From positions 544,001-608,000 of the forward strand of contig OZ241841.1 of the NCBI GenBank assembly GCA_965202665.1: DNA of 64,000 nt, read 5' to 3'. Source of the DNA: Candidatus Spongiisociaceae bacterium. Its GTDB lineage: Bacteria; Actinomycetota; Acidimicrobiia; Spongiisociales; Spongiisociaceae. Numbering within the stretch: position 1 is the first letter of the stretch; every line of letters starts with the position of its first letter. This document shows positions 4,862 to 7,153 of this stretch, one piece after another. The position numbers and the translations under genes were made by a program. Under the pieces are notes generated by a model. That model was not told the DNA's origin. It did not search any database and worked only from the letters and a program-made list of their open reading frames with translations.

Positions 4862-5896
4862 ATGACCCTGTTCCGAACAACCATCCGGTTGGCGGCGGTA
4901 ATGGCGGTAGCGGGCGCGGCCCTGGTCGCAACCCCCCAGCCGGCCCCCGGGTGCAGTTGCACGCGCACCGCTACTCTTTCCGAATACGCCGATGAGGTGG
5001 AGGTCGCCTTCACCGGCCGGCAAATCGAAAGAGTTGAACCCGACGGCACAGCGATCGGTGCTGCCAAGGTGGCCTTGATCTTAGAAGTGGACAGGGTGTA
5101 CAGGGGACGAACGGGACCTCTTATCTCGGTTCTCACCAATTTCGGAGGGGGCAACTGCGGTATTGATTTCAGCAGGGAGGGACTGGTGGCGGTGGCGCCC
5201 GCCCTTAGACAGGACAACGACCTTGAAGTAGCTTTGTGCGGTTCCCAATACGCAATAAGCGATTTCCAAGCGGTATTCGGACCCGGCTACCCACCGGATG
5301 AAACGATGACCCAAACATTGGAACAGATGGAAAAATCAGCGCAGGACACCGTAAATCACCTGATAGCGAATCGGGATTATGTACCAGCGCGGGAACCTGT
5401 CGCGACAGAATGGCAGTGGCTGTCTGAGGAAATGGAGGCTGTCCGGGATTATGTACTAGCGCGGGAACCTGTCGCGACCGCTACCCCTCCGCCCTTCCGA
5501 CCGGTTCCCCGCCTCGGGGGTTATATACCAGCGCGGGAACCTGTCGCGACAACTATCCCGTCCGCCGAACCACCGCCGCCCGCCACAGACGACGCACCCA
5601 CCCCAGAGATGGAAAAACCAACGCGGGAACCCATCGCGACAACTATCCCGTCCGCCGAACCACCGCCGCCCGCCACAGACGACGCACCCACCCCAGAGAT
5701 GGAAAAACCAACGCGGGAACCCGTCGCGACAACTGTCCTATCCGCCCAACCGCCGCCATCCGCCACAGACGCACCCGTCCCGGGCAGCAGGGCGCCAACC
5801 GTAGCGTTGCTCATCGGAACCGCGGCGGCGGTCCTGGCCGGCGGAGCGGTGGTCTTGCTTCGCGTCAGGCGATCTTCGGAAGACAGGAGACGCTAA
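4862..5896 (+). CDS. Secreted/membrane-anchored TIMP/NTR-like domain protein, copy 1, with Pro/Thr stalk
   Basis: GGAGGA RBS, signal peptide ending before CSC, 'VAFTG..EV.RVYRG..NCGIDF..LC' pattern, stalk repeats, C-terminal TM plus RRR tail. Confidence 0.65.
   Translation: MTLFRTTIRLAAVMAVAGAALVATPQPAPGCSCTRTATLSEYADEVEVAFTGRQIERVEPDGTAIGAAKVALILEVDRVYRGRTGPLISVLTNFGGGNCGIDFSREGLVAVAPALRQDNDLEVALCGSQYAISDFQAVFGPGYPPDETMTQTLEQMEKSAQDTVNHLIANRDYVPAREPVATEWQWLSEEMEAVRDYVLAREPVATATPPPFRPVPRLGGYIPAREPVATTIPSAEPPPPATDDAPTPEMEKPTREPIATTIPSAEPPPPATDDAPTPEMEKPTREPVATTVLSAQPPPSATDAPVPGSRAPTVALLIGTAAAVLAGGAVVLLRVRRSSEDRRR
5531..5770 (+). repeat. 90-bp (30-aa) tandem repeat REPVATTIPSAEPPPPATDDAPTPEMEKPT, ~2.6 copies
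   Basis: Units start at 5531, 5621 and 5711. Shorter REPVAT motifs occur upstream near 5390 and 5461. Confidence 0.9.
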
Positions 5897-6677
5897 GGCA
5901 ACTGAGAAGGGAGCGGTGAATCTATGTCCCTATTCCGGACGTTTTGCCGGTTGGCCGTTGTCATAACCGCGGCGGGCGCGGCCCTGGTCGCAACCCCCGG
6001 GCCGGCCTCCGGGTGCAGTTGCGGGTCCACTCCTCTATCCGTATACGCCGATAGGGTGGCCGTCGCCTTTACCGGCCAGCAGATCAAAAGAGTTGGACCC
6101 TACGATGCAGCACTCACTACTGCCGACGTGGCCTTGATCTTGGAAGTGGACTGGGTGTACAAAGGGCGAGCGGGACCTCTCATCTCGGTTATCACCAATT
6201 TCTTAGACGTCTCCTGCGGCATTGATTTCAGCGGGGAGGGCCAGGTGGCGGTGGCCGCCTTTGGACGGGACGACCGCCTTGGAGTAGGTATGTGTAGTTC
6301 CCGACACGCAATTAGCGATTTCCAAGCGGTGTTCGGATCCGGCTACCCACCGGATGAAACGATGACCCAAACATTGGAACAGATGGAAAAATCAGCGCGG
6401 GAATCCATTGCGAAAACTGTCCTGTCCGACACGGACGACGCACCCGCCCCGGGCAGCAGGGCGCCAACCGTAGCGTTGCTCATCGGAACCGCGGCGGCGG
6501 TCCTGGCCGGCGGAGCGGTGGTCTTGCTTCGCGTCAGGCGATCTTCGGAAGACAGGAGACGCTAAGGCAACTGAGAAGGGAGCGGTGAATCTATGTCCCT
6601 ATTCCGGACGTTTTGCCGGTTGGCTGTTGTCATAACCGCGGCGGGCGCGGTCCTGGTCGCAACCCCGGGGCCGGCCC
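5771..6677 (+). repeat. ~235-bp near-identical direct repeat (approx. 5771-6007 and 6440-6677) spanning TM anchor, intergenic region and next signal peptide
   Basis: GGGCAGCAGGGCGCCAACC...CGCTAAGGCAACTGAGAAGGGAGCGGTGAATCTATGTCCCTATTCCGG... occurs twice at an offset of 669 bp. Confidence 0.93.
5924..6565 (+). CDS. TIMP/NTR-like domain protein, copy 2
   Basis: Signal peptide, then CSCGSTP...VAFTG...EVDWVYKG...SCGIDF...MCS; C-terminal TM identical to copy 1. Confidence 0.65.
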   Translation: MSLFRTFCRLAVVITAAGAALVATPGPASGCSCGSTPLSVYADRVAVAFTGQQIKRVGPYDAALTTADVALILEVDWVYKGRAGPLISVITNFLDVSCGIDFSGEGQVAVAAFGRDDRLGVGMCSSRHAISDFQAVFGSGYPPDETMTQTLEQMEKSARESIAKTVLSDTDDAPAPGSRAPTVALLIGTAAAVLAGGAVVLLRVRRSSEDRRR

Positions 6678-7153
6678 AAGCCCACATTTGCTGGCCCCCA
6701 CCTCTCTCCGAATATGCCGACGACGTCGATGTGGCGTTCATTGGGCGTCAGATCGACCAGATTCACAATAGCGGGGACGACTACGACACTCTGCTGTTCG
6801 AGGTGGAATGGGTGTACAAGGGAGACACAGGCGCTCTCCTAGAGGCGCGTACTAGCCCTGAACCCCTGTACCCATGGGAGTTTTATCCGGAGATGGTGGC
6901 CATAGCGGCGTACGAGCTGGATGGCCGCCTGACCGTAGACGTTTGCACAAGCATCTACTATGATGTCCAATTCCACGAATTTTATGAAGTGTTCGGACCC
7001 GGATACCCGCCGGGTTCCACTCCCCCGCCCGCCCCGCCGTACAGGATGCCGGCCGTAGCCATCGCCCTGCTCATCTGGGCCGCCGGGTTCTTACTGATTT
7101 GCGGGGCGGCCGCGGTGTATCACTTGCGACGGCGGTCGGGCCAAGGGCCTTAG
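6593..7153 (+). CDS. TIMP/NTR-like domain protein, copy 3 (divergent, His at mature N-terminus)
   Basis: Signal peptide ending AQA, then HICWPPP...VAFIG...EVEWVYKG...VCT; FGPGYPP motif; C-terminal TM. Confidence 0.6.
   Translation: MSLFRTFCRLAVVITAAGAVLVATPGPAQAHICWPPPLSEYADDVDVAFIGRQIDQIHNSGDDYDTLLFEVEWVYKGDTGALLEARTSPEPLYPWEFYPEMVAIAAYELDGRLTVDVCTSIYYDVQFHEFYEVFGPGYPPGSTPPPAPPYRMPAVAIALLIWAAGFLLICGAAAVYHLRRRSGQGP

Follow-up and report, generated by a model that had tools for sequence, protein, structure and literature searches.

Why does a bacterium carry, side by side, three membrane-tethered proteins that resemble animal tissue inhibitors of metalloproteinases (TIMPs), and what might they act on? 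This question is raised by a stretch of 64,000 nucleotides from Candidatus Spongiisociaceae bacterium (assembly GCA_965202665.1, contig OZ241841.1, positions 544,001–608,000; hereafter the window), in which three co-directional open reading frames (ORFs), separated from one another by 27-nt spacers, form a tandem array (Table 1). Each copy encodes a 30-residue signal-like N-terminus, a domain of 110–115 amino acids, a stalk, a single C-terminal hydrophobic segment (mean hydropathy 2.4–2.5) and an Arg-rich tail. The stalks comprise 168, 39 and 16 residues in copies 1, 2 and 3, respectively, and that of copy 1 is built of Pro/Thr-rich repeats. Whole-protein identity to copy 2 is 75% for copy 1 and 51% for copy 3, whose transmembrane anchor differs from that of the other two. 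The original prediction, made from the DNA letters, of three paralogues with very unequal stalks, a transmembrane anchor and a basic tail is borne out by the ORFs and the hydropathy, and the proteins are predicted to face outward from the membrane that holds them. All three reading frames are intact, and no further copies were found in the 2.77-Mb genome by tblastn and a profile search of 22,503 six-frame ORFs. A consensus promoter scan upstream of the array gave no match. Since contigs of the unrelated run X3 carry pieces of all three copies with few differences, and strain contigs from other runs carry array pieces as well, an assembly artefact was rejected as the origin of the array.

We compared the domains with proteins of known structure using a profile of 20 domains. 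At E ≤ 10, this profile matched six sequences in the Protein Data Bank (PDB), every one of them TIMP-1, -2 or -3 (best E 0.006); the alignments begin at residue 1 and keep Cys1, Cys3 and both partner cysteines in register, with 10–18% identity to the solved TIMP chains. We consider it close to certain that the array domains are remote homologues of the TIMP N-terminal domain. In Pfam and NCBIfam, none of the window proteins matched a model above cut-off, that for TIMP (PF00965) included (0/3 at its gathering cut-off); one of the 20 domains matches the TIMP model at E 0.021. Single sequences searched with phmmer against the PDB gave only weak FieF matches, and the ESM Atlas yielded leads under 0.9, with one cluster in which 13% of members carry TIMP. 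AlphaFold2 models of copies 2 and 3 predict an OB/NTR fold, as had been anticipated. Foldseek placed TIMP-1 first for both copies (template modelling score 0.67–0.74 for the best TIMP-1 rows) and TIMPs at all of ranks 1–15 for copy 2. In VIA-align, the copy 2 model matched N-TIMP-3 first (Z 10.9, root-mean-square deviation 3.3, 107 residues aligned), followed by the meteorin NTR domain (Z 9.4), TIMP-1 (9.3) and the PCOLCE1 NTR domain (8.1). Because these two NTR domains score near the TIMPs, the fold alone cannot tell inhibitors from other NTR domains.

As in the N-domain of animal TIMP-1 to -4 (PF00965; MEROPS I35 according to PMC9890683), the predicted OB/NTR fold is accompanied by Ser/Thr at position 2, by Cys1-x-Cys3 at the predicted mature N-terminus and by equivalents of the disulfides Cys1–Cys70 and Cys3–Cys99/100. 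This disulfide pattern was taken from PMC9409782, which also records single-domain TIMPs in invertebrates. Unlike animal TIMPs, the array proteins have neither the Cys13-type third N-domain disulfide nor a C-terminal TIMP domain, and they carry a stalk and a transmembrane anchor. By the strict definition, copies 1 and 2 are no more than candidate members of TIMP/MEROPS I35, and copy 3 does not qualify.

The domain cysteines lie at mature positions 1, 3, 69 and 96 in copy 1 and at 1, 3, 68 and 94 in copy 2, while copy 3 has Cys3 and Cys88 alone. The prediction of a signal ending just before C-x-C, followed by two more cysteines, holds for copies 1 and 2 and fails for copy 3, which starts His-Ile-Cys and has two cysteines in its domain. 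In order to see how these residues vary, we collected 176 proteins with a domain match and dropped 14 N-terminally truncated ones. All four cysteines are kept in 147 of the resulting 162 domains; Cys3 is lost together with Cys94 in nine and Cys1 together with Cys68 in three, and the rest are two artefacts (one truncation, one internal duplication) and one protein with a two-residue extension. On a 55-sequence tree, the paired losses are spread over several separate clades, one of them (P0111) a long branch. Exceptions to the pairing are one copy of the same-genus genome G001, which has Cys3 without Cys94, and the ambiguous protein P0201. Since the losses covary in pairs, we infer TIMP-type disulfides, predicted to join Cys1 to Cys68 and Cys3 to Cys94; the covariation of Cys1 with Cys68 also suggests that Cys1 is likely retained in the mature protein.

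For the cleavage site, 11 near-identical strain variants were removed as well, leaving 151 homologues. A small-x-small motif stands immediately before the Cys1 column in 149/151, and a strict A-x-A in 117/151, compared to at most seven at any other offset between −6 and +4. As the search profile was built without the signal peptide, this adjacency was not forced by the search. Residue 2 is Ser in 124/151 and Thr in 10/151 (134/151 together), and a C-terminal hydrophobic segment is found in 123/151. The residues past C-x-C vary between the array copies, as had been noticed, yet residue 2, which in TIMPs is the position that chiefly sets specificity, is Ser in both C-x-C copies. A lipoprotein reading was rejected, because a lipobox fits 3/151 homologues and all three window copies have Ala at −3; copy 3 has His where the lipobox Cys would be. 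Signal peptidase I (SPase I) is predicted to cut right before Cys1, which would free this residue in copies 1 and 2, and the −3/−1 rule across the homologues supports the free Cys1 proposed for them. In four related multi-domain homologues, the first domain begins with C-x-C and the internal repeats with C-x-x-C. The cleavage register, Ser/Thr2 and the paired cysteine losses are features to be expected if a free N-terminus binds protease zinc.

According to PMC3003256, TIMPs depend on an unblocked Cys1 amine, which binds the zinc together with the Cys1 carbonyl; residues 2 and 4 fill the S1' and S3' pockets, and one extra N-terminal residue or a Cys1Ser exchange cripples inhibition of matrix metalloproteinases (MMPs), although inhibition of ADAM17 and ADAMTS-4/5 by N-TIMP-3 survives the addition of one or two alanines. 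We tentatively prefer a reading, which we place somewhat short of probable, in which copies 1 and 2 inhibit extracellular zinc metalloproteases in sponge tissue, be they of the host or of neighbouring microbes, via free Cys1. On the exported, membrane-tethered proteins, the amino terminus of Cys1 would bind the catalytic zinc of the protease and Ser2 would enter its S1' pocket; stalks of 16–168 residues could set the domains at different envelope depths.

It is also conceivable, if unlikely, that the domains are non-inhibitory NTR-type binding modules, that is, adhesins or receptors for host matrix or other proteins, diversified like symbiont surface proteins. A stalk-plus-anchor build like that of the array is typical of adhesins, and copy 3, although it has no Cys1, retains the fold and an intact frame. 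Among animal NTR domains, the majority are non-inhibitory and many bind glycosaminoglycans or proteins, as PMC2871463 reports. The non-inhibitory NTR domains of PCPE-1, agrin (NtA), meteorin and complement (C345C) share the fold (Z 6.5–9.4), with meteorin and PCOLCE1 trailing the best TIMP by 1.5 and 2.8 Z units, but these domains are internal, C-terminal or N-terminally extended and gave no profile match at E ≤ 10, the PDB sequence matches being TIMPs only. Moreover, adhesion leaves the near-invariant Cys1 register at the cleavage site and Ser/Thr2 unexplained, and the domains are acidic (net charges −6, −3 and −17 for copies 1, 2 and 3), unlike heparin-binding modules.

Copy 3 cannot be a canonical TIMP-type inhibitor because it has no Cys1, and we propose that it departs from the canonical type, its inhibitory activity being altered or lost. 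Within its clade of seven, four members have no Cys68 partner and start with His or Leu, and three have two extra residues before C-x-C. His is the first residue in 3/7, which fits a further idea: the free N-terminus might bind a metal ion or a zinc-containing non-protease partner, for scavenging or sensing, with His1 of copy 3 as a metal-binding variant. An N-terminal amine and carbonyl can chelate metals and would also select for an exact register, and SilF, a silver/copper chaperone, appears among the OB-fold matches (Z 6.6). We judge this very improbable, given that the other four clade members begin with Leu, Trp, Tyr or Thr and that the SilF match is partial (71 residues aligned), within the range given by a common fold. 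Nor did a recurrent metal-transport neighbourhood emerge among 88 of 121 candidate ORFs scanned at 29 homologue loci, most with 1.5 kb flanks (TIMP-like genes and some more distant ORFs were left out); single loci carry MgtE, an iron repressor or a periplasmic binding protein.

Next, we asked where the copies differ. A ridge of 27 positions (1–5, 28–37, 62–69 and 92–95), based on what we take to be the protease-contact segments of TIMPs, was mapped via the TIMP alignment and the copy 2 model. Copies 1 and 2 differ at 16/27 ridge and 23/86 other positions (p 0.003), and the pooled excess of the ridge over other loops gave p 0.054, 0.003 and 0.001 in three pair sets. Purifying selection acts on the core in each of these sets, with proportions of nonsynonymous differences (pN) of 0.09–0.14 versus synonymous ones (pS) of 0.19–0.29. 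Positive selection, looked for by pN/pS over the three pair sets, was not demonstrated; at the level of sequence, the ridge shows relaxed or diversifying change. The domain differences that separate three strain alleles from copy 2, five in number, are confined to the AB loop and probably arose in one event.

The array is a mosaic. Copies 1 and 2 have identical anchors (36/36 codons) and 66% identical domains, and copies 2 and 3 have 90% identical signals and 43% identical domains. A 300-nt anchor-spacer-signal block recurs at both gene junctions and is likely a recombination handle. The same pattern of like signals and anchors with unlike domains is seen in G001, where nine genes occupy the same locus with PfkB and DsbB upstream. 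Three genomes of the sister genus have a single gene each; next to it is a Rieske oxygenase gene that falls into the same families as the one following the window array. On a tree, window copies 1 and 2 stand apart from the first four G001 genes, and duplication therefore went on within each lineage. Strains differ as well: contigs of X4 and of X9 and X12, two runs from one study, join a copy-2-type stalk straight to the copy-3 anchor (joints near 6453 to 7024); protein P0016 is a chimera of this kind, and X4 also has a shortened copy 1 stalk (contig joint 5384 to 5709). The proposed diversified panel finds support in this rearrangement between strains and in the substitutions clustered on the predicted contact ridge. 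Unequal recombination via the common blocks might swap domains and so widen the range of proteases.

Some further features of these arrays were observed. In a strain contig from X9 and X12 (window 4707–5048 and 5907–6006), the start of copy 2 is followed by a diverged duplicate of the region upstream of the array, the beginning of DsbB included, and then by a further paralogue; a duplication can hence carry the promoter region with it. In the eighth G001 copy (L021 13320–14057), about 30 codons between domain and anchor are in another frame before the normal anchor is reached, owing to either compensating indels or a sequence error. On either side of the G001 array lie Type ISP sequences, namely a fragment of a specificity domain and a full restriction-modification gene (L021 7599–8255 and 14934–19712), and an IS481-like fragment is close by.

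Regarding the wider family, the profile matches 8,629 cluster representatives at E ≤ 0.001, and the array shares with them whole-domain profile homology, the motifs F-x-G, V-x-x-x-[YF]-K-G and C-G, and the terminal Cys. In a sample of 85 homologues hand-picked from 150 listed, Pfam TIMP matched 11/85 at E ≤ 0.01, with 3/85 above cut-off. Of ten clusters examined, one includes a Paenibacillus protein that UniRef names Tissue inhibitor of metalloproteinase. Among genomes of the class, 31/301 have profile matches, one or two each outside the window's genome. The bacterial TIMP-like family is large, partly auto-annotated as TIMP and already visible in databases; what is new here is a strain-variable, mosaic tandem array in a likely symbiont. 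Compared to the usual one or two genes per genome, three to nine stand here in tandem, with clades lacking one disulfide or Cys1. Our literature search, which left most subscription papers outside, found no experimental study of this sequence-related bacterial family. Brew and Nagase (2010) reportedly may mention bacterial TIMP-like sequences. A 2022 review treats TIMPs as a metazoan family (PMC9409782), a 2021 paper states that no record of bacterial TIMP-like proteins was found (PMC8235301), and the main text of a study on sponge Actinobacteriota contains neither TIMP nor metalloprot- (PMC11706023). Within the order, a second architecture of about 500–600 aa in total (L010, L019, L026, L030 and others) consists of a TIMP-like domain, about 350 residues without a Pfam match, and then stalk and anchor. 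Proteins P0084, P0101, P0118 and P0172 have three tandem TIMP-like domains, and two of them run on into a long beta-rich region.

Several observations weigh against protease inhibition in sponge tissue as the role of copies 1 and 2. The loose cleavage rule also allows a cut after Ser2 in 128/151 homologues, and Cys is the first residue in 0/7 members of the copy-3 clade. The PCPE-1 NTR domain, cut to begin at its first Cys, did not inhibit MMP-2, BMP-1 or ADAMTS-2/4/5 in the experiments described in PMC2871463, from which it follows that the fold together with Cys1 is insufficient for inhibition. With stalks of 16 and 39 residues, the domain would sit beneath the cell wall, perhaps out of reach of host proteases. 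The family is nothing unusual among relatives that live freely or whose habit is unknown, as the class genomes and the Paenibacillus member indicate, and its origin is therefore not tied to a sponge host. The ridge excess is present in five of ten non-independent pairs and absent from the other five; ridge pN is close to domain pS in two of the three sets (0.26 vs 0.27; 0.31 vs 0.29), and the one set in which it is higher (0.32 vs 0.19, p 0.013) was picked after seeing the data.

The near-equality of ridge pN and pS would also suit a history in which a single ancestral gene was functional and the array arose largely neutrally, through drift and tandem duplication. Variation in the AB loop extends throughout the family, and the G001 copies with an unpaired Cys3 and with a frame-shifted segment are in keeping with such a history. 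Purifying selection on the core, three intact window frames and cysteines that are mostly lost in pairs make this explanation quite improbable in our view.

As for the habitat, all or part of the stretch occurs in 19 of the 20 runs listed (8 studies); five are labelled sponge metagenome (2 studies), four marine metagenome (1 study), and the rest are coded. Sponge run X7 covers all three genes, with 12/13 contigs at 95% identity or more. The best-matching holder run may be the source sample and was excluded as support, and no RNA run is among the holders listed. Pattern scans with copy 2 found no related loci in genomes and metagenomes. The organism is likely a sponge symbiont. Its array is surrounded by genes for DsbB, PfkB, a protein resembling ferredoxin reductase and a Rieske oxygenase. 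The scan of 88 ORFs described above contained no peptidase family, and a cognate protease next door was rejected on these grounds.

The cell might instead be restraining enzymes of its own. Three SLH-anchored proteins of this genome have an intact HExxHxxxxxH, after which comes a conserved Asp-x-Met/Leu-Ser motif. Their matches to TIGR03296 (E 4e-6 to 4e-11) stay below cut-off, and those of the M6-like domain in the PDB span only the zinc helix (E ≥ 0.018). By motif and sub-threshold match, these M6-like domains are candidate metzincins. If they were the targets, the array would serve self-protection or control of protease activity at the wall, as potempins do. One of the three genes lies 15.6 kb downstream of the array, and short stalks would put the domains near freshly exported proteases. 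The M6-like protease is found in 20/24 family genomes versus 8/24 for the TIMP-like gene, and all eight carriers of the latter except G005 also have the protease (7/8). Over 41 genomes, the two distributions disagree: 26 have the protease, 12 the TIMP-like gene and nine both, leaving 17 with the protease only and three with the TIMP-like gene only. The two kinds of gene are never adjacent, whereas potempins and Listeria Tim adjoin their protease gene, and the genome (G000, 94% complete) yielded no gene of the M10 or reprolysin type. We regard own enzymes as an unlikely target, and the want of a peptidase at the homologue loci, together with the failure to track the cell's own M6-like proteases, points to an outside one. 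Taking outside and own targets together, inhibition of zinc proteases by copies 1 and 2 is probable, though far from assured.

Known bacterial systems offer partial parallels. Potempins such as PotA of Tannerella forsythia are likewise small, membrane-anchored bacterial proteins, PotA being a beta-barrel; it inhibits a metzincin, protects the cell surface and also blocks host MMP-12, and is a precedent for a membrane-anchored bacterial inhibitor with both effects. Potempins differ in being lipoproteins encoded beside a cognate protease gene, the zinc ligand of PotA is a loop Asp and not an N-terminal amine, and PotA is described as unrelated to TIMPs (all from PMC9890683). Tim of the Mtz–Tim pair in Listeria monocytogenes is also membrane-bound and was termed TIMP-like; according to PMC8235301, it differs as a lipoprotein with a blocked N-terminal Cys, its likeness to TIMPs comes from threading and not from sequence, and its gene lies beside that of a metzincin which cleaves it. 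In sponges, archaeal symbionts have expanded secreted serpins with a proposed action on their own or host proteases (PMC6790972), which may parallel an inhibitor expansion in the sponge habitat.

In a bolder version of inhibition in sponge tissue, the symbiont would keep on its surface a set of true TIMP-type inhibitors that recombines and varies between strains, in an arms race with host MMP/ADAM/ADAMTS-type proteases, in which the array would hold specificity classes. The copy-3 clade would then be a natural counterpart of the engineered N-TIMP-3 that loses MMP inhibition and keeps that of ADAM17/ADAMTS. We consider this version rather doubtful. If the domains do inhibit metzincins, natural single-domain TIMP scaffolds exist in bacteria by the thousands, and the symbiont array would be a microbial means of controlling proteolysis inside host tissue; the family's presence in databases limits the surprise. 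The locus is suited to a first test because it brings its own controls: near-identical paralogues with differences on the ridge, variants without one or the other disulfide, and candidate proteases from the same genome.

Table 1. Coordinates (window positions) of the array genes, their parts and other features; pLDDT, predicted local distance difference test.
Feature	Position	Strand	Remarks
Copy 1 gene, 344 aa	4862..5896	+	Translation, comparison with paralogues
Copy 1 signal, predicted Sec/SPase I	4862-4951	+	
Copy 1 N-TIMP-like domain	4952-5296	+	First residues Cys-Ser-Cys
Copy 1 stalk, in-frame repeats	5372..5796	+	72-nt and 90-nt periods; length strain-variable (P0012, P0013, P0015)
Copy 1 transmembrane helix	about 5801-5857	+	Then basic tail
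Copy 2 gene, 213 aa	5924..6565	+	AlphaFold2 model pLDDT 88.9
Copy 2 N-TIMP-like domain	6014-6352	+	First residues Cys-Ser-Cys, after signal
Copy 2 transmembrane helix	about 6470-6526	+	Anchor and tail same as in copy 1
Copy 3 gene, 186 aa	6593..7153	+	AlphaFold2 model pLDDT 91.1
Copy 3 domain	6683-7012	+	First residues His-Ile-Cys; Cys1/Cys68 pair lost; net charge −17
Anchor-spacer-signal block, first copy, 300 nt	5768..6067	+	Gene 1/2 junction; 91% identical to 6437-6736
Anchor-spacer-signal block, second copy	6437..6736	+	Gene 2/3 junction
DsbB-family gene	4242..4811	-	Divergent from array; also upstream of nine-gene array in G001
M6-like SLH-anchored protein, 2,338 aa	22754-29770	-	15.6 kb downstream of array; intact zinc motif
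Adjacent M6-like paralogue, SLH anchors	29839-31551	-	Zinc-binding residues lost

Besides the DsbB gene, a membrane-anchored thioredoxin-like protein (CPHC) is encoded upstream of the array (2422–3162, minus strand), and the two are likely a disulfide-forming pair that could fold the array domains. A DsbB gene beside homologues was not seen in other genera, and a conserved DsbB partnership was rejected, as the linkage is seen only in two same-genus genomes. The 2,338-aa protein combines long repeats, leucine-rich repeats, the M6-like domain at 23828–25000 on the minus strand and SLH anchors, and its two intact paralogues lie elsewhere (L060, L061); its repeats look like Calx-beta/Ig domains, without a Pfam match. 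The adjacent paralogue that has lost its zinc-binding residues is likely a pseudo-protease. Further along the window, a 1,584-aa SLH-anchored protein has no other Pfam domain (57328–62082, plus strand), and a low-GC island (41–52%; 50798–54906, minus strand) encodes a Type III restriction-like helicase and a DNA methylase.

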